Notes: generated from the letters alone by a model not told the origin. Shown: positions 21,780 through 37,174, counted from the stretch's first letter. The stretch is DNA of 64,000 nt from an uncultured Chloroflexia bacterium (GCA_963776285.1 CAVZLW010000006.1:38188-102187), one strand, 5' to 3'. Numbers and translations: made by a program.

Positions 21780-23989
21780 TCAGGCCCCGGAGCCGCCCTC
21801 CCCGGCCGCCCCGGCGATCCGCCCGAGGAGCGCGGACGCCAACGTCCGGACGGCCGTCGCGTCCCGCGCGACGAGCGCGGCGCCTGCCAGCTTGCGGAGC
21901 TCCGCGCTCGTGACGGCGGCCAGCGCCAGGCGCACTTCGTCGAGCGAGCCGGCGTCCGCAGACAGCTCGTCGACGCCCAGGCCGACGAGCACCAGGGCAC
22001 CTGCAGGGTCGCCGGCGAGCTCCCCGCACACGGCCACGGGGATGCCGGCGGCGTCGGCGCCGGCCACCACGCCCGCGATCGCCCGCAGCACGGCGGGATG
22101 GAGGGCGTCCTGGAAGCGACCCAACGTGGCGTTCCCGCGGTCCGCGGCCATCACGTACTGGGTCAGGTCGTTCGTGCCGATGCTGAAGAAGGCCACCCGC
22201 CGGGCCAGCTCCGGGGCAAGCAGCGCGGCGGCCGGGATCTCGACCATGATGCCGGTGACCATCGCCTCGGCGCAGACCTGGCCGGCCGCGAGGACCCCCG
22301 CACGGGCCTCGTCGCGCAGGGACTCCAGGAGGTCGACGTCGTCGAGAGTCGCGACCATGGGAGCCATGACGTGCGGTCGCACGCCGGCCAGCCCGCCGGC
22401 TCGCCAGATCGCCCGGAGCTGGGTCCGCAGGAGCTCGGGGTCGCCGTACGCCAGGCGGATCGCCCGCACGCCCAGGAAGGGGTTCGCCTCCGCCGGCAGG
22501 CCCAGGTAGGGGATCTCCTTGTCGCCCCCGATGTCGGCCAGCCGGACGACGACGGGGCGGTCCGGGCCGAATGCCTCGAACGCGCGCCGGTACGCGGCGA
22601 CCTGCTCGTCCTCGGTGGGCGGCACCTGGCGCCGCATGAAGAGGAACTCGGTCCGGAAGAGCCCGACGCCCTCGGCGCCGGCCTCGAGCGCCCGCGGCGC
22701 GTCGTCCGGATTGCCGATGTTCGCCACGAGGAGGACGCGGGCGCCGTCGGAGGTTGCCCCGGGCGCGGCCGCGCGCCGCGGCGGCCCTGGCGCGCCGCGC
22801 GGCGAGCGCCGCCGCGCGCTCGGCCAGGGCGGCCTTTCGCCCCGGCGTCCGGGTCGATGAGGACCTCGCCGGATTCGCCGTCGAGGGCGATCTCGACCGC
22901 GACTCCCGACGCGGCGGCGTCGTCGACCGCCTCCAAAAGCCCGGCGCACCCGACGACGCACGGGATGCCGAGCCCGCGGGCAAGGATCACCGCGTGCGCC
23001 GTCCGCGACCCGCCGGCGAGGGCGATGCCGCGCAGGAACGCGGCCGGGATCTCGGCCGTCACCGAGGGCGGCAGGTCGTCGGCGATCGCGACGACGGGGG
23101 CATCGGGGAGCGCCAGCGTCTCGCCGCGCAGGATCCGGGCGATCCGCGCGCCGACGTCCCGCACGTCCGCGGCGCGCGCCGCCAGCAGCTCGTCGCCGAG
23201 GCTGGCGATGGCGAGCGCCGCCTCCGATGCCGCGGCCGTGACGGCCGCGGCCGGGTCGGCTCCGGCCGTCACGCGCTCGAGAGCGTCGTCGACGATGGTC
23301 GGGTCGGTGGCCAGGACCGCCTGGGCCTCGAAGATCCCCGCGTCGTCGGGCCGTCCTGCTGCCCGGATGCGGGCTGCCAGCGCGTCGAGCTGGGCCTCGG
23401 CCTCCGCAGCTGCCGCGCGGATCGCGGTCGCGGGATCACCGGTTGCCGCGGCCGGCGCGGCGGACGGCTGCTCGCGATAGCGCCACGCCGGTGCCGTCGC
23501 GATGCCGGCGACGGCACCGTCCCCGCGAAGGCGGCGGGCGCCCGGATCCACCGCCGGGCCGGTCCCGGCCACGGCAGGCGACGGCGGCAGGGGCGGCCCG
23601 GGCTGGGCGGCAGAGGCCCCGGGGGCCGCAGGAACGGCAGCGGCCGACGGCGCCGCGGAGGCCGGCGACGCAGCAGGCGCTGCGGCGGCCTCGGGAGCCG
23701 CGGGACGCGGGGGGATCTCCTCGCCCAGGCCGGCCTCGATCGCCGCCCTGATGGAGGCGATCGCCTCCACCTCGTCCTCGCCCTGGGCCGTGATCCGGAC
23801 CACGTGGCCCATGCGCACGCCCAGCGGCTGGACCCTCAGCATCTGCTTCGCGTTGGCGGGACCCGCTCCCGTGGACAGGTTCTGGATCGTCACGTCCGAG
23901 CGGACCTTGCCGCAGGTCCGGACGAACTGGCCCAGCGGTCGCAGGTGGAGTCCGTTCGGGTTGCGGATCTCGATCTCGAGCGTCTGCAC
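21780..23989 (-). pseudogene. ptsI: HPr–Enzyme I fusion (ptsH-ptsI) gene, interrupted by two single-nucleotide frame changes
   Basis: Frame A (23989 down to ~22845) encodes an HPr domain (MQTLEIEIRNPNGLHLRPLGQFV…), an Ala/Pro linker, and the EI N-terminal and phospho-His domains (GGSRTAHAVILARGLGIPCVVGC). Frame C (about 22840..22760) encodes the EI linker helix RKAALAERAAALAARRARAAAARG. Frame B (22760..21780) encodes the PEP-utilising TIM barrel (LLVANIGNPDDA…GVGLFRTEFLFM…FFSIGTNDLTQY…CGELAGD). The switches occur at the C/G runs at 22840-22844 and 22757-22763. Confidence 0.75.
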
Positions 23990-25544: not shown

Positions 25545-25937
25545 CTATGGCGCCGCGTTGATGATCGCCGCGAAGAGGACGACCCCGTAGACGACGGTGA
25601 TGATGCCGACGACCGACAGGACGTTCGTGATCCGCCGCTCCGTCCGCTCCGAGAAGCCGAAGTCGAACAGGATGGCCCGCACGCCCACCAGGGCGTGGTA
25701 CGTCACGAAGACCAGGAAGCAGACCTCGAGGACGATCACCACCGGGTTCCGCAGCCAGTCGATGACCTCCTGGTAGAAGCGCAGCCCGCTTGGCGCGACG
25801 AAGTGCTGGGCGATCATGTGCAGCCCCAGCAGGACGATCAGCGCGACGCCGCTGACGACCTGGCCCACGAAGACCGGCACGCCGCGCGAGCCGGCGGGGC
25901 GATCGGCCGGCCGTGGTTCGGTGGCCATCTCGCTCAC
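25545..25937 (-). CDS. succinate dehydrogenase-type hydrophobic membrane anchor subunit (SdhD-like)
   Basis: 130 aa with three predicted TM helices and a conserved His in HALVGV. It lies 3 nt downstream of the SdhC-like gene. Confidence 0.6.
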   Translation of the reverse strand: MSEMATEPRPADRPAGSRGVPVFVGQVVSGVALIVLLGLHMIAQHFVAPSGLRFYQEVIDWLRNPVVIVLEVCFLVFVTYHALVGVRAILFDFGFSERTERRITNVLSVVGIITVVYGVVLFAAIINAAP

Positions 25938-25940
25938 CTC

Positions 25941-26360
25941 CTACTCGCCCGCGAAGATCCGAAGCGCCCCGACGAGCGCCACGAAGGCCGCGATGACCAT
26001 GAACGCGATGAAGAGCGCCTTCTGCCGGCTCGCCACGAGCCCCAGCCCGACGAGACCGACGCGGATCCCGTTCAGGCCGTGGATCAGCATCCCCGTCAGG
26101 AGGAAGACATCGAGAAGGAGGAACGGGGGGCTGAGCGCGATGTTGACGAAGCTGTCCCAGGCGTTCGGCCCCTGGACCAGCATCGACAGGATCATCAGGT
26201 GGAGATAGAGGTAGACGACGAGGCCGAGCCCGGTGAGGCGGTTGAGGATGAAGGCCAGGCCACCGAGGCGACGGCCGCGCGGGTCGAACCAGCCGACGAT
26301 GCCCCGGCGACGCGCGGGGCCGGCTACGGGCCGCGGCCGCTCGACGGTCGTGCTCGCCAT
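25941..26360 (-). CDS. succinate dehydrogenase-type cytochrome b subunit (SdhC-like)
   Basis: 139 aa with three TM helices (…LAFILNRLTGLGLVVYLYLHLMILSM…LTGMLIHGLNGIRVG…), carrying candidate heme-ligating His residues. Its ATG overlaps the SdhB-like stop (TGATG). Confidence 0.6.
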   Translation of the reverse strand: MASTTVERPRPVAGPARRRGIVGWFDPRGRRLGGLAFILNRLTGLGLVVYLYLHLMILSMLVQGPNAWDSFVNIALSPPFLLLDVFLLTGMLIHGLNGIRVGLVGLGLVASRQKALFIAFMVIAAFVALVGALRIFAGE

Positions 26361-27106
26361 CAGCGGTTTCCTCCGAACGAGAAGAGGCGTCGCGCCCGGG
26401 CCGCGGCGGCCGACCGGCGGAGCCGCATGATCGCGGCTGCCGGGTCCACGCCGGACGGGCAGGCCTCGGAGCACTCCCAGGTCAGGTGACAGCGCCAGGC
26501 GGCCTGGTCGTCGTCCATCAGCCGGATGACGGGGCCCGGGTCGAGCCCGCGGGGCTCCTCGACCACGCGCCACGCCGCGGCGAGCGCGGCGGGGCCCACG
26601 TAGCGCGGGTCGCTGCCGGCCACCGGACAGGCGGAGAGACAGATCCCGCACTCGATGCAGTCCTCGTAGCGATCCAGCTCGTCGATCCCTTCCGCCTTCT
26701 CGGCGCCGGGGATCTTCTCCGAGGACCTGACCAGCGGCCGGCCGGCCTCGTCGAACTCGTCGAAGAAGACGTTCATGTCGACGACGAGGTCGGAGAGGAC
26801 CGGGATGTTGTCGAGCGGCTCGACGACGACCTCGGCGCCGGCCGGAACGGGCGTCACGCAGGCCAGGCCTTCCCGGCCATTCACCTGCATCCCGCACGTC
26901 CCGCACGAGGCGTGGAAGCAGGAATGCCGGAAGGTCAGGCTCGGGTCGAGCTCGCGGCGGATGGCCACGAGCGAGTCGAGGATGGTCGTGCGGGGCCCGA
27001 CGGCCACGTCGAAGGTGTCGTAGCGCAGCGCCGCGGGATCGTCGCCCTCCTTCCGGCGGGAGACGACGAAGCGGGTCGTGCGGAGGTCGGTCGCGCTGTC
27101 GGTCAT
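26360..27106 (-). CDS. succinate dehydrogenase/fumarate reductase-type iron-sulfur subunit (SdhB/FrdB family)
   Basis: The 2Fe-2S segment DPSLTFRHSCFHASCGTCGMQVNG…LAC…DLVVDM is followed by CIECGICLSACP ([4Fe-4S]), GPAALAAAWR, and CHLTWECSEACP ([3Fe-4S]). It is collinear with E. coli SdhB. Confidence 0.85.
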   Translation of the reverse strand: MTDSATDLRTTRFVVSRRKEGDDPAALRYDTFDVAVGPRTTILDSLVAIRRELDPSLTFRHSCFHASCGTCGMQVNGREGLACVTPVPAGAEVVVEPLDNIPVLSDLVVDMNVFFDEFDEAGRPLVRSSEKIPGAEKAEGIDELDRYEDCIECGICLSACPVAGSDPRYVGPAALAAAWRVVEEPRGLDPGPVIRLMDDDQAAWRCHLTWECSEACPSGVDPAAAIMRLRRSAAAARARRLFSFGGNR

Positions 27107-27116
27107 CGCTCCGCTC

Positions 27117-28304
27117 CTACGCCGCGTAGTACGCGGTGTGCGGAAGGGTCACGACCTCCCGCGTCTGGCACGGCGCCTCGACGCCGACCTTGCGACAGAT
27201 GACGTCGGCCGTCGTCTCGGCCATCGCGCGGAGGGTCGTCCCCTTGCCGCCGGAGATGGTCACGAAGCCCTCGACGCCGTCCGTCTCGCGGTGGTCGAAG
27301 CACTTGAAGGTCCGGCTGAGCTCGCGGCCGCTCTCGGCGTCCTTGGAGCCGATCAGCGGGCGGGCGGCCGACCAGGCGGCCCGTCGCTCCGCGTGGCGGA
27401 TCGCGGGGATCATGGTCGACCCCTCGACGTACATCCGCTCGACGTGGTCCTCGGGCACTCCCAGGTCGTCCGGATCGTCCACGACCCAGGAGCTGGTGCC
27501 GACAACGGAGAGGCCCCGCTGGGGCACCACGATGTCGCCGTCACCGGAGGGGTGCAGGCGGTTCACGACCATGTTGCACCAGCGGCCGCGGACGGCCAGC
27601 AGGACGCCGGGCGAGGGCCGGATGGGCACGTCGCAGCCGGCCATCACGGCGAGCTGCTCCGCCCATGGCCCGGTGGCATTCACGACGAGGTCGGCGCGGA
27701 TCTCCTCCTCGACGCCGTTCACGAGGTCGCGGACCCGGATCCCGGAGACGAGGTGGTCGGCCACCAGCATCTCGGTCACGGTGGTCCAGGGACGGACGAC
27801 CGCGCCTCCCGCCTTCGCGCTGGCGAAGAAGCGGAGGGGCATCCGCATCGCGTCCATCGTCGCGTCGGGGACCTGGACGGCCATCCTGACCTGGGGGTTC
27901 AGGTTCGGCTCCAGGCGCAGGGCCTCCTCGCGCGAGACCCGGCGCGCCGGGATGCCGCTGGCGAGGCAGGACTCGAAGAACAGGGGCTCGTAGGCCACGT
28001 CCTCGTCGGTGATGGCGACGAAGAGCCCGTCGTTCGCCTCGAAGGCGCCCGGGCAGACGCGGCCCAGGATCTGGCGCTCCTCGATGCACTCGACGGCGGA
28101 CTCGCGATCCTTGACCGCGTAGCGAGCTCCGGAGTGGAGCAGGCCGTGGTGGCGGCCGGTCGTCCCGGAGGTGATCTCGCCACGCTCCACGAGCGTCACG
28201 CGGAAGCCCCGGAGGACGAGGTCGTGGGCGAGCGCGCCGCCGGTGCCGCCGCCCCCCACGATCGCGACGTGGAAGGGCTGTCGGGGTAGTCGGGTGATGG
28301 TCAT
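27117..28304 (-). CDS. glpA: FAD-dependent glycerol-3-phosphate dehydrogenase, GlpA-type flavoprotein lacking the C-terminal BFD-like Fe-S domain
   Basis: The ATG at 28304 gives MTITRLPRQPFHVAIVGGGGTGGALAHDLVLRGFRVTLVERGEITSGTTGRHHGLLHSGARYAV, near-identical in pattern to the E. coli GlpA N-terminus. Similarity continues to ...FVTISGGKGTTLRAMAE...CRKVG. The 395-aa product corresponds to about the first 400 of E. coli GlpA's 542 residues. Confidence 0.85.
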   Translation of the reverse strand: MTITRLPRQPFHVAIVGGGGTGGALAHDLVLRGFRVTLVERGEITSGTTGRHHGLLHSGARYAVKDRESAVECIEERQILGRVCPGAFEANDGLFVAITDEDVAYEPLFFESCLASGIPARRVSREEALRLEPNLNPQVRMAVQVPDATMDAMRMPLRFFASAKAGGAVVRPWTTVTEMLVADHLVSGIRVRDLVNGVEEEIRADLVVNATGPWAEQLAVMAGCDVPIRPSPGVLLAVRGRWCNMVVNRLHPSGDGDIVVPQRGLSVVGTSSWVVDDPDDLGVPEDHVERMYVEGSTMIPAIRHAERRAAWSAARPLIGSKDAESGRELSRTFKCFDHRETDGVEGFVTISGGKGTTLRAMAETTADVICRKVGVEAPCQTREVVTLPHTAYYAA

Positions 28305-28373
28305 GTGCTGCGCTCCGCGCCCTGACAGGGAGATGCCCGGGCCCCGCGTGCGGGGCCCGGGCACCGGGAGGGT

Positions 28374-29911: not shown

Positions 29912-30544
29912 CTAGTGCCCGGCCCAGACCTCTGCGGCGGACCGCAGGAGGAGATGCGAGGACGTCGCGCCGGGATCCTGGTGCCCGGCCGACCGCTCGC
30001 CGAGGTAGCTCGCCCGGCCCTTGCGGGCGACGAGCGGCACCGTGGCGAGCATGCCCTGCTGTGCCCCGTCGGCCATCCGGGCCAGGGCGTCGCCGACGGT
30101 GGCGCCGTCGGCGATCGCGGCCCGGAGAGCGTCGCGGGCGGGGATGAGGGCATCGACCATCGTCTTGTCCCCGGGCTCGGCCTTCCCGATCCGGAGGACC
30201 CCGCCGAGACCGGCTTCGTAAGCCGTGGCGAATTCCTCCAGCGTGAGGGCTTCCTTCCCGGCGATGGCGCCTCCCATCTGCATGAAGAACATCCCGTAGA
30301 GCGGGCCGCTGGCGCCCCCGACCGTCGAGACGAGCGTGGTGCCGACGGTCTTGAGGGTGGCCCCGATGTCGGGGCCCGTCAGGCCGTCCAGCTTGCCGGC
30401 CACGGCGGTGAAGCCGCGGTCCATGTTGATCCCGTGATCGGCATCGCCGATCGCCGAGTCCAGGTCCGTGAGATACGCCTTGTTCTCCGTCACGACGGCG
30501 GCGAACCGGCGGATCCAGGCGAGGATGTCGTCGTGCGAGATCAT
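29912..30544 (-). CDS. dhaL: dihydroxyacetone kinase ADP-binding subunit
   Basis: It has [19 protein letters not shown] (Mg/ADP site), GGASGPLYG and [10 protein letters not shown]. It lies immediately downstream of dhaK. Confidence 0.9.
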
Positions 30545-30592
30545 CGGCGGCTCCGTTCCCGCGTTACGGGCAGTAACGATGTGACGAACGGC

Positions 30593-31591
30593 TCACAGGC
30601 CCCAGCGGAGGCCCGGCGTGAGGACCGGTGCGTCCCAGTACTTCGTGAGCTCGTCATCGAGGCGGAGGAGGGTGATCGAGCAGCCCGCCATCTCCAGCGA
30701 GGTGATGTAGTCCCCGACCAGGTTCCGGGCGATCGTGATGCCGCGGCCGTCGAGGATCTTCTTGAGCTCGTTGAAGACGACGTACAGCTCGATGAGCGGC
30801 GTGCCGCCCATCCCGTTGACGAAGGCGAGGACCTTGTCGCCCCTCTGGAACGGAAGGTCGTCAAGGATCGGCGTGGCGAGCATCGCCGTGATCTCGGCGG
30901 CGGAGGCGATCTTCATCCGCGTCCGTCCCGGCTCGCCGTGGATCCCGACGCCGATCTCCATCTCGTCGTCGCCGAGCTCGAACGTCGGCTTGCCGGCCTG
31001 CGGGACGGTGCAGCTCGTGAGGGCCATGCCCATGGAGCGCACGTTGTCCTGGACCTTCTGGCAGAGCGCCGTGACGGTCGCCAGATCGGCGCCCGCCTCG
31101 GCGGCCGCGCCGACGATCTTCTCGGCGAGGACGGTCCCCCCGACGCCGCGGCGGCCCGCGGTGTAGAGCGAGTCCTTGACCGCGACGTCGTCCGCGATGA
31201 CGACGCTGGTGACCTCGATCCCCTCGGCCCGGGCCATCTCGGCCGCGAGCTCGAAGTTCATGATGTCGCCGGTGTAGTTCTTGACGATGTGCAGGACGCC
31301 GGCGCCGGCGTCGACCGCCTTGGTCGCGGCGAGCATCTGGTCCGGCACGGGCGAGGTGAAGACTGCGCCGGGGCAGGCTGCATCGAGCATGCCCATCCCG
31401 ACGAAGCCGCCGTGCATCGGCTCGTGGCCGGAGCCACCGCCCGAGATCACGCCGACCTTGCCGGCCCTGGGGGCGCCGGCGCGCACGACCACGTTGGGCT
31501 CGATGACCCGCACGAGGTCGCCGTGCGCCGCCACGACGCCCGCGAGAGCGTCGTCGACGACGGTTTCGGGAGCATTGATGAGCTTCTTCAT
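30593..31591 (-). CDS. dhaK: dihydroxyacetone kinase Dha-binding subunit
   Basis: 332 aa containing [25 protein letters not shown] (active-site His) and …NYTGDIMNF…. An SD GAGGA precedes the ATG. Confidence 0.93.
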
Positions 31592-31710
31592 CCGTTCCTC
31601 CTGTGGCGCATTGGGCCCGGGTGCTCGGGAACGTGCTGTGGACGGGTGCGCGCCGGCGGCGAGGCCGTCGTGCCGCCGGCGCGCGAGGGGTGCGTGCTAG
31701 AACGCCCCCG

Positions 31711-32484
31711 TCACTTGGCCGCGTTCACGACCAAGCTGACGAAGACACTCTGGTAGATGATCGCCGCGAGGACGCCGCCGACGAGCGGGCCCACGACCGG
31801 GATCCACGAGTAGCCCCAGTCGGAGTTGCCCTTGCCGGGGATCGGCAGGATCGCGTGCATGATGCGCGGCCCAAGGTCGCGGGCCGGGTTGATGGCGTAT
31901 CCGGTCGTCCCGCCGAGGGACAGGCCGATCACGAGGACGAGGAAGGCAACGGGCAGGGCGCCGAGGGACGCGAGACCGCCCGAGGTGGGCCCGACGTTGT
32001 TCCCGAAGGCGAAGATCACGAAGACCAGCACGAATGTGCCGATCACTTCGGAGATGAAGTTGAAGACGGTGTTGCGGATCGCCGGCCCGGTCGAGAAGAC
32101 CGCCAGCTTGAGGCCCGGGTCCTCAGTCTCGACCCAGTGCGGGTAGTAGTGGATGAAGACCAGGAAGGCACCCAGCATCGCGCCGATCATCTCGCCGATG
32201 ATGTACGTGCCGAAGGTCGGAAGGTCCATCGGGTTGGGCCCGCCCAGGATCAGGTCCCGGGTGTAGATGCCGATGGTGACCGCCGGGTTCAGGTGGGCGC
32301 CGCTGAACGGGCCCGCCACCACGACGCCGCAAAAGACCGCAAAGGCCCACGCCATGGTGATGACAATCCAGCCGCTGGCATTCGCCTTCGACTTGGCGAG
32401 CAGGACGCCAGCGACCACGCCGTCGCCGAGAAGGATCAGGATCATCGTCCCGAAGATCTCGGCAAACAGGATTTCGCTATTCAT
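31711..32484 (-). CDS. glpF: aquaglyceroporin (glycerol uptake facilitator)
   Basis: 257 aa with six TM segments and two NPA boxes (GAHLNPAVT, GYAINPARD). An SD GAGGGAGAG precedes the ATG. Confidence 0.93.
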   Translation of the reverse strand: MNSEILFAEIFGTMILILLGDGVVAGVLLAKSKANASGWIVITMAWAFAVFCGVVVAGPFSGAHLNPAVTIGIYTRDLILGGPNPMDLPTFGTYIIGEMIGAMLGAFLVFIHYYPHWVETEDPGLKLAVFSTGPAIRNTVFNFISEVIGTFVLVFVIFAFGNNVGPTSGGLASLGALPVAFLVLVIGLSLGGTTGYAINPARDLGPRIMHAILPIPGKGNSDWGYSWIPVVGPLVGGVLAAIIYQSVFVSLVVNAAK

Positions 32485-32809
32485 GCTCTCTCCCTCTGGG
32501 TTGAAGGAAACGCGCCATTCGCGCGGAGGGCGACGCCACGTCGCCGATCGAACCGAGGATCCGGCGAGCGAGCACCCGGTACGGGCTCACCGGCAGGGCA
32601 CAGCACGATCTGCTCGGGTCCGTCCCTCCCGTGGTGTCGCGGCCTCGGCCTCTGGCCGCGCGACCGTCTGGGCGCGGTCGGCGCACGGTGCCCGCCGGCA
32701 CCGTTGCGGCAAGGTTACGACCGGGCACGACCGGGAATCGTCAAGACATTGTCCAGATTCGTGAGGTCCCGCTGGGACGCGGCTCCGTCGGCCGGCCGCG
32801 GGCCGCCTG

Positions 32810-33466
32810 TCAGCCCCCGGCGGCGGCGTCGGCGAGGGCCCGCAGCAGGAGGGCGCTCGACGCGGCCCCGGGATCCATGTGGCCGATCGAGCGCTCCCCG
32901 AGGTAGCTGGCCCGGCCCTTGGTGGCGAGGAGCGGGATCGTCGCCCGGGCGCCGGCCTCGGCCGCCCCGGCCGCACGCGCCGCCGCGTCGGCGAGCGGCG
33001 CTCCCGCGCCGACCGCCACCTCGAAGGCCGCGCGTGCCGGCAGCAGGGCGTCGAGCATCGTCTTCTCCCCCCGGGCGGCCCGGCCCAGGGCCGCGATGGC
33101 GTCGACCGCGGCGGCGAAGGCGACGACCGCCTGGGCCTCCCGGCCCGGGGCCGGCCGCCGGCCGTCGCTCGCGGCGGGCAGGTCGAGCGAGGTCCCGGCG
33201 CGCTGGAAGCCCCGTCCGTAGAGCGCCCCGCTCGCGCCGCCGACCGTGCCGATGAGGGTCCGACCGGCGGCCTCCAGGACGAGGGGCGGTGGATCGCCGG
33301 GACACTCACCAGTGTCGAGCCGACGGATCAGCTCCCGGAACCCGCGATCGAGGTTGATCCCGTGGTCGCCGTCGCCGATCGCCGCGTCGAGGTCCGTGAG
33401 GTGCTCGCGCTGGTCGGCGACGCGGGCCGCGGCGAGGCGCAGCCATCGAACCAGGAGATCCTCCAT
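32810..33466 (-). CDS. DhaL-family (Dak2 domain) protein, paralog 2
   Basis: It has DLDAAIGDGDHGINLDRGF, GGASGALYG and [10 protein letters not shown]. Its start overlaps the stop of the second dhaM-like gene by 1 nt. Confidence 0.85.
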   Translation of the reverse strand: MEDLLVRWLRLAAARVADQREHLTDLDAAIGDGDHGINLDRGFRELIRRLDTGECPGDPPPLVLEAAGRTLIGTVGGASGALYGRGFQRAGTSLDLPAASDGRRPAPGREAQAVVAFAAAVDAIAALGRAARGEKTMLDALLPARAAFEVAVGAGAPLADAAARAAGAAEAGARATIPLLATKGRASYLGERSIGHMDPGAASSALLLRALADAAAGG

Positions 33467-33894
33467 CAGGACCCCGTGCCGGCCAGCCAGTCGGGCGGCA
33501 GCTTCGGCGCCCGGCCCTCGGCGTCCGCGGCCACCCGGACCTGCTCGCGGGTCGAGCCCCCGGCCGCCTCGACGGCCGCCCGGATGGCCCCCTCGACGAG
33601 GGGGCCCTGGCTCACGGCGACGAGCCCTCGCTCGAGCGCCGGGAGCTCCTCGAGCGCCATCTCCAGGGCCATCGCGGCACTCCCCAGGTCGAACAGCACG
33701 ACGACGCCGTCATCCGGTGACGCGGCCAGCCCCGCGTGCAGCGCGTCGAGGATCCCCGGGCTGCTCGTGCCCAGGTTCCCGACGAGGGTCCCCCCGGCGA
33801 TCGCGACGGGGACGGCGGGGGCCGCCTGGGCCACCATCGCCCTGAGCGCGCGCAGCAGGTCCGGGCTGTGGCCGACGAGCACCAGCGAGACCAT
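33466..33894 (-). CDS. DhaM-like EIIA(Man) domain protein, paralog 2
   Basis: In ORF 33466..34608 the upstream part is antisense junk of the + strand dhaL3. The ATG at 33894 gives MVSLVLVGHSPDLLRALRAMV…GVVVLFDLGSAAMALEMALEELP…GPLVEG, with the same architecture as dhaM. Confidence 0.8.
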   Translation of the reverse strand: MVSLVLVGHSPDLLRALRAMVAQAAPAVPVAIAGGTLVGNLGTSSPGILDALHAGLAASPDDGVVVLFDLGSAAMALEMALEELPALERGLVAVSQGPLVEGAIRAAVEAAGGSTREQVRVAADAEGRAPKLPPDWLAGTGS

Positions 33895-33972
33895 CGGATC
33901 GACTCCGCGCCCTGCATTTCGGGGGCGCCGGCGCCACGCGACCCCGCCCGCCGCCGTAGACTCAGGCGGCTG

Positions 33973-34686
33973 ATGAAGAGGATAGGGACCCTGGCGCCTC
34001 CCGCGCGCGTCGACGCCGTGCGTGTCCCGCACGCCGGGCTGTCCGCGTCCGACGTCCTCGGGTTCGTCGAGCGCGCGGCGACGACGCTCACCCGGCACGA
34101 GGCACTCCTCGATCGCCTGGACGCGGCGCTGGGTGACGGCGACCACGGGACGAACATGCGGATCGGCTTCGTCGCGGCGATCCCCGTGGCGCGTGCCGGG
34201 CTCGCGGAACGACCCGACGACGTCGGCGAGCTGCTCCGCATCCTCGGCCACAGCCTCGTCGGCAGCGTGGGCGGCGCGAGCGGTCCCCTCTACGGCACGG
34301 CCTTCATCGAGGCTGGCTTCGCGCTCGCGGGGCGGCCCTCCGCCGACGCCAGCGACCTGGCCGCCGCGCTGGAGGCCGGGCAGGCGGGGCTCGTCCGTCG
34401 CGGCCGCTGCGCCATCGGCGACAAGACGATCCTGGACGCGCTCGACCCCGCGGTGCGCGCCCTCCGGGCGGGTGCGGCGGCCGGCCACCCGATCGACGCG
34501 TGCGCCGCCGGCGCCGCGGTCGCCGCCGCGGCCGGCATGCGGTCGACGATCCCCCTGGTGGCACGTCGAGGGCTGGCCCTGCGGCTCGGCGAGCGGTCGC
34601 GGGGTCATCGCGACCCCGGCGCAACCTCCTGCTTCCTCCTCCTCGAGGCGATGGCCCGGGCCGTTCGCCGGGAGCCGGCGGCATGA
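33973..34686 (+). CDS. DhaL-family (Dak2 domain) protein, paralog 3, translationally coupled to sensor kinase
   Basis: The ATG at 33973 gives MKRIGTLAPP…, with [29 protein letters not shown] and …RLGERSRGHRDPGA. Its stop TGA overlaps the kinase ATG (ATGA at 34683-34686). Confidence 0.8.
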   Translation: MKRIGTLAPPARVDAVRVPHAGLSASDVLGFVERAATTLTRHEALLDRLDAALGDGDHGTNMRIGFVAAIPVARAGLAERPDDVGELLRILGHSLVGSVGGASGPLYGTAFIEAGFALAGRPSADASDLAAALEAGQAGLVRRGRCAIGDKTILDALDPAVRALRAGAAAGHPIDACAAGAAVAAAAGMRSTIPLVARRGLALRLGERSRGHRDPGATSCFLLLEAMARAVRREPAA

Positions 34687-36428
34687 CCAGGGCGACGCGG
34701 GACCAGGCGCGAAAGGCGCCTGCCGCGACGTCGACCGGCCGCCCGGCGGAGCTGGAGGTCAGGATCCGCGAGCTCGAGGCAGAACGACGGCGCGTCTTCG
34801 AGGATGCCCAGCGCGAGGCCGACGCGATGTTCGCGCAGTATCAGCTGAGCCAGCTGCTGGCGGCGGGCGGGAGCGTGGACGAGATCGCGGCCGCCGTCCT
34901 TGCCGAGGTGGCGCGAGCGTGCGGGGCGGCGGGGGCGGCGCTGTGGCTCGCCGGCCCGGGGAGCCGGGCCCTCGGGCTGGTGGCGATGTTCCCCGGCGAC
35001 GCGGACGATCCGGTCGGTCCCGGCTGGGTGGTGGTGCCCCGGGGCTTCACCGACGCCTGGGCCGCCGCGTCGTGGGCCGCGCTGGGCGGATGGAGCGGCG
35101 TCACGCTCCCCGAGGGCCGCTCGATGGGCGGCGGCGCGCCGCCGAGCGGCGGGACAGGCGCGGTCGGGTACCTCGCCGTCCGGGCGGACGGCCGCGTGCC
35201 CCTGGAGCCCGACAGCGAGCGCTACCTGGCGAGCGTCCGCCGGGAGCTGGCCATCACGCTGCGGGCCGCCCAGCTGCGCGCCTCGCTGGCCCGCGAGCAG
35301 GCGACCCTGGCGGCGATCCTGGAAGGTGCCACCGATGCGATCGTCGCCGTCGACTGGAGCCGGCGCGTCGTCCGCCTCAATGCCGCCGCGGCGGCGCTGG
35401 TCGGCACGTCGGCCCGGACCGGGACCGGGATGCGCTGCGCGGAGTTCCTGGGCTGCGTCCGTCCGATCGCCGAGGGCAGGCTGCTCGGCGACGGGATCGT
35501 CGCCGAGCAGCCCCCGGACCTCCTGTGCGGTCAGCGCTGCCCCTTCGCGGAGGTCCTCGAAGGCGGCCTGCCGATCGTCGGCCGGGAGCTCGCGGTGCGC
35601 CGGCGCGATGGCGGCGAGATCCCGGTCGCGGCGAGCGTGTCGCGGATGCCGGTGCCCGACGGCGGCGCCGTGGCCATCCTCCGCGACCTGCGCGCCGGGC
35701 GCGTGCTGGACGACGCGAAGACCAGCTTCGTGGCGGCGGTGTCACACGAGCTGCGCACGCCGCTGGCCCTGATCGACGGCTATTCGCAGAGCCTCCTGCA
35801 CCTGGACCTGGACCGCCCGACCGCGCGGCGCCACGTCGAGCGCATCGCCGACGCCGCGCGCCGCCTCGCGACCCTCGTCGACGACATCATCGACGTGAGC
35901 CAGCTCGAGAGCGACATGCTCGTCCTGCGCCGCACGCCGGTCGCCATCGACGGCCTCCTGCGCACGTACGTGGCCGAGCGAGCCGACGGGCTCGACGCAC
36001 GCCTGATCGCCCTCGCGCTGCCGCGCCTGCTGCCGCCCGTGGACGTCGACGCCACGCGGATCCGGCAGGTCATCGCCAACCTCGTCCAGAACGCCGAGAA
36101 GCACGCCGGGCCCCGCGCGCCGATCGAGATCCGGGCGCGCCACACCGACGACGCCACCGTCGTGGTCACCGTGGTCGACGGCGGTCGCGGCATCGCTCCC
36201 GAGGATCGCGACCATGTCTTCGAGCGCTTCTACCGGGGAAGGCGCGTGCGGGAGTCGCAGGTGCCGGGAAGCGGCCTCGGGCTGTACCTGTGCCGCCGCA
36301 TCGTCGAGGCCCACGGCGGCTGGATTCGCCTCGATGCGACCACCCGGGGGACCTCCATCTCGGTCGGACTCCCGGTGGCGCCCCTGTCCGGCGGCGGAAG
36401 CGGGCCGCGCCGCGAGGCCCCCGCATGA
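34683..36428 (+). CDS. cytoplasmic sensor histidine kinase (coiled-coil/GAF-like, PAS, HisKA, HATPase_c)
   Basis: MTRATRDQ… has no TM segments. It has an N-terminal coiled coil (ELEVRIRELEAERRRVF), a PAS-like segment (AILEGATDAIVAVDWSRRVVRLN), an H-box (FVAAVSHELRTPL), an N-box (QVIANLVQNAEKH) and G-boxes (DGGRGI…GSGLGL). Confidence 0.85.
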   Translation: MTRATRDQARKAPAATSTGRPAELEVRIRELEAERRRVFEDAQREADAMFAQYQLSQLLAAGGSVDEIAAAVLAEVARACGAAGAALWLAGPGSRALGLVAMFPGDADDPVGPGWVVVPRGFTDAWAAASWAALGGWSGVTLPEGRSMGGGAPPSGGTGAVGYLAVRADGRVPLEPDSERYLASVRRELAITLRAAQLRASLAREQATLAAILEGATDAIVAVDWSRRVVRLNAAAAALVGTSARTGTGMRCAEFLGCVRPIAEGRLLGDGIVAEQPPDLLCGQRCPFAEVLEGGLPIVGRELAVRRRDGGEIPVAASVSRMPVPDGGAVAILRDLRAGRVLDDAKTSFVAAVSHELRTPLALIDGYSQSLLHLDLDRPTARRHVERIADAARRLATLVDDIIDVSQLESDMLVLRRTPVAIDGLLRTYVAERADGLDARLIALALPRLLPPVDVDATRIRQVIANLVQNAEKHAGPRAPIEIRARHTDDATVVVTVVDGGRGIAPEDRDHVFERFYRGRRVRESQVPGSGLGLYLCRRIVEAHGGWIRLDATTRGTSISVGLPVAPLSGGGSGPRREAPA

Positions 36429-37174
36429 GGCCGCGTGCCCCGGGACCCATCGCGGGCCGCGGAGAGCGGATCCTGGTCGTCGAGGATGAGCCCGCCTTCG
36501 CCGAGCTGATCTCGCTCTGGCTGGAGCGCCACGGATGGCGGCCCGAGATCGCGCCCGACGGAGCCCACGCGCTCCGCTCGTTCCAGGAGGCGCCGCCGGA
36601 TCTCATCGTCCTCGACCTGAGCCTGCCCCGGGTCGACGGCTGGCACGTGATCGAGCGAGTCCGCCAGCGCAGCGCCGTCCCGATCATCGTCGTGACCGCG
36701 CGCGGCTCCGAGGCGGACAAGGTGCGGGGTCTGGCGGCCGGCGCCGACGACTACGTGACCAAGCCGCTCAGCTTCCCGGAGCTCGTCGCCCGCGTGGCGG
36801 CCGCCCTGCGCCGGGCGCGCGGCACGCCGACCGCGGCGGGTGCCCTGGCCGCGATCGAGCTCCCCGGCGTGCGGATCGACGGCCCCAGCCATCGGGTCGA
36901 GATCGCCGGCTCGCTGGTCCACCTCACGCCGACCGAGTATCGCCTCCTGCGCCACCTCGCCGAGCGGCCGGGCGTCCTGGTGCCGCACGCGGAGCTCCTG
37001 GTCGCGGTCTGGGGCAGCGGCTATCGCGAGGATCACCACCTGCTGCGGGTGGCGATCCGCAACCTGCGGGCGAAGCTCGCGACAGCATCGCCGGGGCGCC
37101 GCTTCATCGAGACGGAGTACGGCCTGGGATACCGGTTCGCCGCTCCCGCGGTCGACGCGCCGGCGATCACCTGA
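36425..37174 (+). CDS. OmpR-family response regulator (REC plus winged-helix)
   Basis: The ATG at 36425 overlaps the kinase stop. ILVVEDEPAFAELI…DLIVLDLSLPRVDG is the receiver domain, with a C-terminal trans_reg_C domain (…LTPTEYRLLRHLAERPGVLV…). Confidence 0.9.
   Translation: MRPRAPGPIAGRGERILVVEDEPAFAELISLWLERHGWRPEIAPDGAHALRSFQEAPPDLIVLDLSLPRVDGWHVIERVRQRSAVPIIVVTARGSEADKVRGLAAGADDYVTKPLSFPELVARVAAALRRARGTPTAAGALAAIELPGVRIDGPSHRVEIAGSLVHLTPTEYRLLRHLAERPGVLVPHAELLVAVWGSGYREDHHLLRVAIRNLRAKLATASPGRRFIETEYGLGYRFAAPAVDAPAIT

Follow-up and report, generated by a model that had tools for sequence, protein, structure and literature searches.

A dihydroxyacetone kinase DhaL paralog genetically linked to a soluble histidine kinase and a response regulator in Limnocylindria-like Chloroflexota

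The 64,000-nucleotide stretch of DNA analyzed here, referred to as the window (uncultured Chloroflexia bacterium, GCA_963776285.1 CAVZLW010000006.1:38188-102187; 74% G+C), carries three plus-strand genes that encode DhaL3, a paralog of the dihydroxyacetone (Dha) kinase subunit DhaL, a sensor histidine kinase, and an OmpR/PhoB-family response regulator (Table 1). As a preliminary description of the window had proposed, the genes are chained by two ATGA stop/start overlaps, which the sequence confirms as GGCATGACC at 34683-34686 and CGCATGAGG at 36425-36428, and the gene map and Pfam assignments bear out that the trio is divergent from dhaM2-dhaL2 and glpF-dhaK-dhaL1-glpK. A gap of 84 bp separates the trio from the minus-strand dhaM2, beyond which follow dhaL2, a 325-bp spacer, glpF, dhaK, dhaL1, glpK, and a gene for a GlpD-like FAD oxidoreductase; farther on the minus strand lie genes for Fe-S and cytochrome-b-type subunits, a second dhaM, an ApbA-like reductase, and an HPr-Enzyme I fusion.

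The adjacency of dhaL3 and the kinase gene, on which the functional proposal of the preliminary description depended, is conserved family-wide in related genomes, down to 38% identity in the kinase sensor and across two operon layouts. Loci found through the DhaL3 or kinase protein (L001-L008) represent six distinct places, as L001-L003 share one sequence, with DhaL3 relatives at 63-74% identity and kinase-sensor relatives at 50-55%. Each of the six has a DhaL3, a kinase whose start precedes the DhaL3 stop by 4 bp, and then a regulator, and in all of them the module is divergent from an EIIA-type dhaM gene. A one-genome-per-species scan with the DhaL3 alignment returned mostly ordinary DhaLs from many phyla, as the patterns selected for it were motifs common to both groups, and the ordinary loci served as a negative control: the cognate sensor kinase lies immediately downstream in eight of eight DhaL3-type loci (54-79% identity to DhaL3) and next to an ordinary DhaL in none of 71 loci. 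Among distinct DhaL3-type loci examined, the cognate kinase is directly downstream in 16 of 16. A metagenome scan seeded with the kinase sensor alone gave 80 loci at 38-78% identity, 72 of which include enough upstream DNA to be informative; a DhaL3 with an RGLA(L/M)R loop, described below, is found upstream of the kinase in 71 of these, abutting it in 69 and separated by a longer gap in two.

The form of the junction is maintained as well. An NTGA overlap, reading ATGA, GTGA, or TTGA, joins dhaL3 to the kinase gene in 11 of 11 loci checked, and all 69 abutting metagenome loci have NTGA at this position (A/G/T-TGA in 61, CTGA in eight). Taken singly, an overlap of 4 bp is nothing unusual for operons of high G+C; its conservation is unusual, and the near-perfect co-occurrence of the genes adds to this. 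The N-terminal sensor module of the kinase is itself rare, with 97 proteins matching at E<=0.001 among 1.84 billion cluster representatives, and many of the 97 are fragments from this one kinase family.

Such linkage could also be meaningless, an inherited synteny of one lineage in which the two-component system regulates something else. All named source organisms of the loci are Chloroflexota (Limnocylindria-like), proteins identical or close to those of the window come from metagenome-assembled genomes labelled Chloroflexi/Chloroflexota or Candidatus Limnocylindrales, and in the clade of the window the whole region, including mfd, is syntenic: a divergent dhaM2-dhaL2, the spacer, and glpF-dhaK-dhaL1-glpK on one side and the regulator followed by mfd on the other, sometimes with an MFS transporter gene inserted between regulator and mfd. 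A deeper clade (L012, L022, L034, L051, L055, and many metagenome loci) has a compact divergent dhaM-(HPr)-glpF-dhaK-dhaL-ptsI arrangement with a single enzyme DhaL and no mfd, and a divergent EIIA gene adjoins dhaL3 in most loci with sufficient sequence. The module and its position opposite the dha operon thus outlast the change of layout, which argues against simple hitch-hiking. The module persists while its flanks change (two layouts, mfd present or absent, MFS gene inserted), the junction overlap is maintained, the substitutions in DhaL3 are family-specific and fixed, and the sensor domain hardly ever occurs apart from DhaL3. Of the alternatives weighed in this work we rate meaningless synteny the least likely, and very improbable in itself; a functional link between DhaL3 and the two-component system is well supported. 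As far as sampled, the module is restricted to Limnocylindria-like Chloroflexota.

Seven public proteins (P0245, P0300, P0310, P0324, P0325, P0281, and P0270) looked, from the positions of their matches, like natural fusions of Dak2 and kinase. They were rejected, as real and out-of-frame translation alternate along their length, which identifies them as frameshift artefacts of error-prone assemblies. These proteins are translations of the dhaL3-kinase locus and could mislead surveys of domain architecture.

DhaL3 matches the Dak2 hidden Markov model (PF02734) with 153.1 bits against a cutoff of 27, over profile positions 2-173 of 174. It also passes the TIGR02365 equivalog cutoff of 138.3, with the lowest score among the three paralogs of the window (DhaL3, 166.9; DhaL2, 195.5; DhaL1, 239.3). 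An AlphaFold2 (AF2) model of DhaL3 (predicted local distance difference test score, pLDDT, 83.8; residues 1–22 predicted to be disordered) has as its top Foldseek matches the E. coli DhaL structures 2btd and 3pnl_B (template modelling score, TM-score, 0.78-0.88; E=7e-11), so that the model assigns to DhaL3 the all-helical barrel fold of DhaL.

The preliminary description had held that DhaL3 retains the ADP/Mg-binding residues, a claim that stands for the Asp triad, the Gly-rich loop, and the DPGA motif; the change in the KGRASY loop was overlooked. DGDHG and GGASGPLYG are present in DhaL3 and invariant across its family, and a comparison of 137 DhaL3-type with 96 ordinary DhaL sequences showed D30/D35/D37, H38, the GGASG loop, GDKT (K128/T129), and DPGA to be common to both groups at >=95%. 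Together these are the known Mg-ADP contacts; their roles, including Mg binding by the Asp triad and a ribose contact by DPGA, follow a secondary source, a FakA/DhaL structure paper (PMC9136124). Seven positions are fixed differently in DhaL3 (E. coli numbering: T27D, I33L, M130I, K176R, R178L, S180L, and Y181R), and four of them fall in the KGRASY loop, which does not vary among the ordinary DhaLs inspected, whether cyanobacterial, clostridial, or from E. coli (n=96; R178, S180, and Y181 100% conserved). In DhaL3 the loop reads RGLA(L/M)R in 137 of 137 sequences and RGLALR in the window. PMC11506722 describes R543 of human TKFC as contacting ATP and essential for triokinase activity, and the equivalent arginine as a conserved essential residue in E. 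coli DhaL. We infer that TKFC R543 corresponds to DhaL R178 from that statement and from the motif offsets, as in both proteins the arginine lies 32 residues from the C terminus and 13 residues from the aspartate of DPGA.

With the loss of the arginine reported as essential, DhaL3 is probably a catalytically dead pseudo-enzyme and very probably unable to act as a normal phosphoryl-transfer subunit, and a protein with RGLA(L/M)R in place of KGRASY should not be classified as a working DhaL. The catalytic loop has been lost under strong purifying selection: at the deepest split DhaL3 retains 57-61% identity and the kinase 43-46%. Two cysteines of DhaL3, C146 (34408-34410, plus strand) and C220 (34630-34632, plus strand), are invariant in DhaL3-type proteins, in the contexts RGRC...GDKT and GATSCFL, at positions where ordinary DhaLs carry Ala and Ser/Thr/Val, respectively. 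A protein that is more conserved than its kinase and has family-specific invariant cysteines is not a decaying duplicate. The window genome also encodes the orthodox DhaL1, and the best reading of these sequence features is that DhaL3 is a pseudo-enzyme retained for a regulatory job. The suggestion in the preliminary description that the same metabolic sensor as E. coli DhaL operates here has to be replaced accordingly: DhaL3 is a dedicated paralog with a lost catalytic loop.

The kinase was described as lacking transmembrane segments and having GAF/PAS-like modules, and both statements hold, with a best 19-residue Kyte-Doolittle window of 1.49, a Pfam match to PAS_4, and GAF-like and PAS domains in an AF2 model. 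In this model, built from 55 homologues (mean pLDDT 86.9), a helix is followed by a GAF-like domain, a 40-residue linker helix (aa 178-217), and the PAS domain; the first helix (aa 20-60) is long and charged and contains an invariant FAQYQLSQL. The catalytic motifs of kinase and regulator are intact, those of the kinase being the H box SHELRTP at 354, the N box NLVQNAEKH at 466, the G1 box DGGRG at 499, and the G2 box GSGLGL at 529, and the nearest NCBIfam kinase cores are of the PnpS/PhoR/WalK type. In the regulator, Response_reg (98.3 bits) and Trans_reg_C (71.4 bits) both match over their full length, and of the NCBIfam models MtrA and PhoB come closest, each scoring under its equivalog cutoff.

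The architecture of the kinase sensor is reminiscent of DhaR, the E. coli regulator that binds DhaL. A Foldseek search of the PDB with the sensor returned the DhaR receiver 4lrx_C first (E=4.8e-8, 205 columns), 4lry_C second, and 4lrz_H sixth, a match that is unspecific, with TM-scores of 0.24-0.28 and other PAS tandems nearly as good. Profile-profile comparison of the sensor with DhaR residues 1–318 gave a probability of 14.5% and hence no demonstrable homology; in the profile alignment, the boundary between linker and PAS nearly coincides (kinase residues 185–257 with DhaR residues 181–253). The remote sequence matches of the sensor include no DhaR-type protein. Given the low TM-scores, the low profile probability, and the lack of DhaR among the remote matches, the sensor does not qualify as a homologue of DhaR. 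By analogy, the system plausibly works like DhaL-DhaR.

The PAS domain has a feature of its own. Four cysteines, C252, C258, C282, and C286 (35436-35540, plus strand), are spaced C-x5-C-x23-C-x3-C-P-F in the E-alpha/F-alpha region, and PAS cofactors usually sit between E-alpha and F-alpha. None of the four varies among 55 sequences, and the deepest clade retains three of them; across the kinase family C252, C258, and C286 are invariant and C282 is present in most members. The cluster points to a possible metal or Fe-S site, which may give the kinase a second, redox-type input. One may go further and suppose that the kinase senses redox, oxygen, or metal through this PAS domain, with DhaL3 as co-transcribed cargo or an accessory isozyme, a view in keeping with the near-invariance of the cysteines at the cofactor site as well as with a DhaL3 that scores above the TIGR02365 cutoff and keeps its Mg/ADP motifs. 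A cargo enzyme would, however, be one that lacks the arginine reported to be essential for kinase activity, in a genome that already has the orthodox DhaL1 and also DhaL2. Moreover, dhaL3 is the first gene, overlaps the kinase gene, accompanies it in 71 of 72 loci, and is the more conserved of the two, a pattern that is to our knowledge rare for cargo genes of two-component operons. We consider the cargo explanation unlikely.

A candidate site for the response regulator lies upstream of glpF. In eight loci of the clade of the window, the glpF upstream spacer contains a conserved block, ctgGACaaTGTyTTGACGwTT-N(~21)-CGTAaCCTT, in which GACRWT-N5-GACGWT forms a direct repeat of 11-bp period that overlaps a -35-like TTGACG and is followed by a TAnnnT -10. 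Promoters activated by PhoB/OmpR classically carry such phased direct repeats over their -35. The exact box pattern occurs once in the window (Table 1) against 0.05 expected. Between dhaM and dhaL3, the second clade has three yTTGMy repeats in exact 11-bp phase on the strand of the dha operon, e.g., CTCTTGATGCC, ATCTTGCTTTC, TTCTTGATGAC. A strict regular expression, TKGAC-N6-TKGAC, applied to all loci found the box in only seven; as the upstream half-site is degenerate, we rely on the aligned conserved block and the triple repeat of the second clade. The 11-bp-phased TTGAC-type repeats that both clades have in front of the dha operon are a candidate regulator site, and we think it more likely than not that the system controls the glpF-dhaK operon.

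Two further features of these promoter regions were observed. A perfect 8-bp hairpin, ACGGTGCC-GGCG-GGCACCGT (32685-32704, minus strand), directly follows the putative glpF -10 and opens a leader of about 220 nt; its stem varies with compensation across loci (GTGCC/GGCAC, GCACCC/GGGTGC, GTACCC/GGGTAC, GTGCT/AGCAC), and it matches no Rfam family. Before the dhaL3 ATG, TAGACT or TACACT is conserved in all loci inspected, and the first dhaL3 codons are conserved at the nucleotide level (ATGAGGATAGG-like; 33957-33972, plus strand). A conserved hexamer only 10 nt from the ATG suggests a leaderless transcript or one with a very short leader. An Rfam scan of the dhaL3 locus found no known RNA family.

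We propose that dhaL3, the kinase, and the regulator form a signalling module in which a dedicated, probably catalytically dead DhaL3 is the signal-perceiving partner of the soluble GAF-like/PAS kinase, a proposal to which we give an even chance. Because its Asp triad, Gly-rich loop, and DPGA motif are intact, DhaL3 is proposed still to hold Mg-ADP or Mg-ATP. The neighbouring carrier DhaM of the phosphotransferase system (PTS), in its phosphorylated form DhaM~P, would reversibly charge DhaL3-ADP. Dha-loaded DhaK and DhaL1 would drain DhaM~P, so that DhaL3 stays in the ADP form, and the state of DhaL3 would report the phosphoryl flux drained by the real DhaK/DhaL1 enzyme, that is, the availability of Dha or glycerol. 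In the ADP form DhaL3 would dock on the kinase dimer at its N-terminal helix/GAF-like module and shift the long linker helix, as in DhaL-DhaR; the signal would pass to the DHp domain and switch the protein between kinase and phosphatase modes. The phosphorylated OmpR/PhoB-type regulator would then bind the TTGAC repeats at the -35 of glpF-dhaK-dhaL1 and activate transcription. Direct binding of DhaL3 to the kinase sensor we hold to be slightly favoured; that the signal is the ADP/ATP state of DhaL3 is possible and, in our estimate, rather doubtful. The fullest form of the proposal, in which the dead paralog is an obligate kinase input that couples the PTS/Dha relay to the phosphorelay and the PAS domain adds a redox or metal input, is offered tentatively, at somewhat less than even chances. 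The window offers dhaM2 as a possible phosphoryl donor to DhaL3: its product scores 83.4 with TIGR02364, under the DhaM cutoff of 98.25, and has the VGHS histidine near its N terminus.

The same retained fold and lost loop would suit a mechanism of partner switching, in which DhaL3 is a decoy that binds the kinase or DhaK and is titrated away by Dha-loaded DhaK or by DhaM~P, the signal being the occupancy of DhaK and not ADP or ATP on DhaL3. A binding-only pseudo-enzyme is expected to keep the DhaL fold and lose the catalytic loop, and L. lactis provides a precedent in DhaQ, a Dha-kinase paralog that is purely a co-activator (NCBIfam TIGR02362, 'DhaKLM operon coactivator DhaQ'). The strict retention of the Mg/ADP-binding residues, on the other hand, indicates that the nucleotide probably still matters, and we regard partner switching, including its premise that DhaK occupancy is the signal, as improbable, on a par with the cargo explanation.

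Several points weigh against the signalling module as proposed. The preliminary description had allowed that substitutions at nucleotide-binding residues of DhaL3 might have been overlooked, and R178L, S180L, and Y181R are such substitutions, next to an Asp triad, Gly-rich loop, and DPGA motif that are unchanged; a DhaL3 that lacks R178 may also be unable to accept charge from DhaM, which makes the nucleotide switch uncertain. The PAS cysteine cluster may allow the kinase to sense redox or metal independently of DhaL3. One informative metagenome locus, L138 (contig Ga0209415_10034868), has the regulator and an intact kinase with FAQYQLSQ and the Cys cluster, with no recognisable gene in the 1.1 kb preceding the kinase (positions 1–1150) and no DhaL3 within about 1.2 kb upstream. 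As all loci belong to one phylum, their conservation is partly vertical synteny. At the proposed glpF promoter, the -35/-10 spacing of 21 nt is atypical, and the TTGAC repeat could belong to another regulator.

Table 1. Features of the dhaL3 region of the window, with positions counted from its first nucleotide
Feature	Position	Strand	Evidence
dhaL3, Dak2-fold DhaL paralog, 237 aa	33973..34686	+	Pfam PF02734 E=9e-45
RGLALR loop, aa 199-204, in place of KGRASY	34567..34584	+	motif census, 137 vs 96 comparison
-10-like TAGACT hexamer, 10 nt before dhaL3 ATG	33957..33962	+	conserved in inspected loci
soluble sensor histidine kinase, 581 aa, start overlaps dhaL3 stop	34683..36428	+	PAS_4, HisKA, HATPase_c
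kinase N-terminal helix (aa 20-60) and GAF-like domain (aa 65-177)	34740..35213	+	
kinase PAS domain, aa 219-335	35337..35687	+	Pfam PAS_4, AF2 secondary structure
HisKA (aa 345-410) and HATPase_c (aa 456-566) core	35715..36380	+	full-length Pfam matches
OmpR/PhoB-family response regulator, 249 aa, start overlaps kinase stop	36425..37174	+	Response_reg, Trans_reg_C
dhaM2, single-domain EIIA-man-type DhaM-like phosphocarrier	33466..33888	-	EIIA-man E=1e-13
dhaL2, second DhaL paralog, co-transcribed with dhaM2	32810..33466	-	Pfam, motifs, TIGR02365
candidate response-regulator box GACAATGTCTTGACGAT, upstream of glpF	32737..32753	-	direct repeat, 11-bp period
putative target operon glpF-dhaK-dhaL1, continuing into glpK and glpD-like gene	29912..32484	-	Pfam
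glpF	31711-32484	-	Pfam
dhaK	30593-31591	-	Pfam; above NCBIfam equivalog cutoff
dhaL1	29912-30544	-	Pfam; above NCBIfam equivalog cutoff

Among the neighbouring genes, dhaL2 encodes a protein that keeps KGRASY, reads GGASGALYG in the Gly-rich loop, and has an insertion of about 15 residues. The divergent dhaM2-dhaL2 pair is limited to the clade of the window; in the deeper clade there is just one dhaM and one dhaL for the enzyme. The minus strand between glpK and the second dhaM (25545-28364) encodes the GlpD-like FAD oxidoreductase, then a 2Fe-2S/4Fe-4S subunit, and then an Sdh_cyt-type membrane subunit, putatively an unusual three-part glycerol-3-phosphate dehydrogenase. The HPr-Enzyme I fusion gene (21780-23989, minus strand) is split across two reading frames, with HPr, EI-N, and the mobile domain in the open reading frame 22163-23989 and PEP-utilizers_C in the open reading frame 21780-22961; the frame switches around 22763-22867, and related loci have a single open reading frame, which points to a frameshift, either an assembly error or a pseudogene. 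Far from the module, an adenosylcobalamin (AdoCbl) riboswitch (RF01482; 2277-2423, minus strand; 53.7 bits, above the gathering score) sits upstream of a minus-strand gene ending near 2273.

A full-text literature search returned no report coupling a DhaL/Dak2 protein to a histidine kinase. If the signalling module proposed here is real, DhaL3 would represent a new class of histidine-kinase accessory protein and a clean case of an enzyme turned pseudo-enzyme sensor, with the loop swap from KGRASY to RGLALR as its diagnostic, and PTS and two-component signalling might cross-talk at this locus. As DhaL3 passes TIGR02365 and is automatically annotated 'DhaL', counts of Dha-kinase genes in Limnocylindria-like Chloroflexota are probably inflated. 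The components are small and soluble, which makes the hypothesis directly testable in vitro despite the uncultured state of the organisms.

The concept of a trigger enzyme or retired paralog acting as co-sensor has precedents in DhaL/DhaK-DhaR, DhaQ-DhaS, and PII-NtrB. E. coli DhaR is an activator of dhaKLM under the control of trigger enzymes; its N-terminal region is a tandem of GAF-like and PAS domains to which both DhaL and DhaK bind (PMC10084136). The DhaR complexes with DhaL and DhaK (4LRX, 4LRY, 4LRZ) resemble the present system in that an L-type Dak2 protein stands beside a cytoplasmic regulator with GAF-like, helix, and PAS elements, and the DhaR gene, like the trio of the window, is divergent from the dha operon. 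The two differ in their output, which is HisKA/HATPase and a separate OmpR/PhoB regulator here and Sigma54_activat (AAA+) with HTH_8 (Fis) in DhaR, and in the partner, here a dedicated paralog whose catalytic loop is mutated and there a working enzyme subunit; no sequence homology is detectable between the sensors. If the proposal holds, the module would have arrived independently, by convergence, at the logic of E. coli DhaL-DhaR with a different kind of output.

In L. lactis, DhaQ, a DhaK paralog, reportedly co-activates the TetR-type DhaS, a finding attributed to Christen et al. in 2006. Both systems would use a duplicated Dha-kinase subunit, retired from catalysis, as a ligand-sensing partner that controls the dha operon; in L. 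lactis a K subunit, which binds Dha, is paired with a TetR protein, whereas here an L subunit, which binds nucleotide, is paired with a two-component system. Small soluble proteins that dock on a kinase and set its kinase/phosphatase balance are known from PII (GlnB) with NtrB and from EIIA-Ntr (PtsN) with KdpD or PhoR, and they carry a metabolic or PTS-derived modification state. They belong, however, to unrelated families without a Dak2 member, and their genes usually do not overlap that of the kinase. The cysteine cluster recalls NreB, the [4Fe-4S] oxygen sensor of staphylococci, a soluble kinase whose PAS domain likewise has three to four conserved cysteines; the NreB spacing is C-x2-C-x11-C-x2-C, in contrast to the C-x5-C-x23-C-x3-C read here from sequence, and NreB has no Dak2 partner. 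Known regulation of dha genes relies on working enzyme subunits and an enhancer-binding-type protein in E. coli, on a retired DhaK paralog and a TetR protein in Lactococcus, and on plain repressors elsewhere; the present locus suggests a fourth solution, in which a retired DhaL paralog feeds a two-component system.

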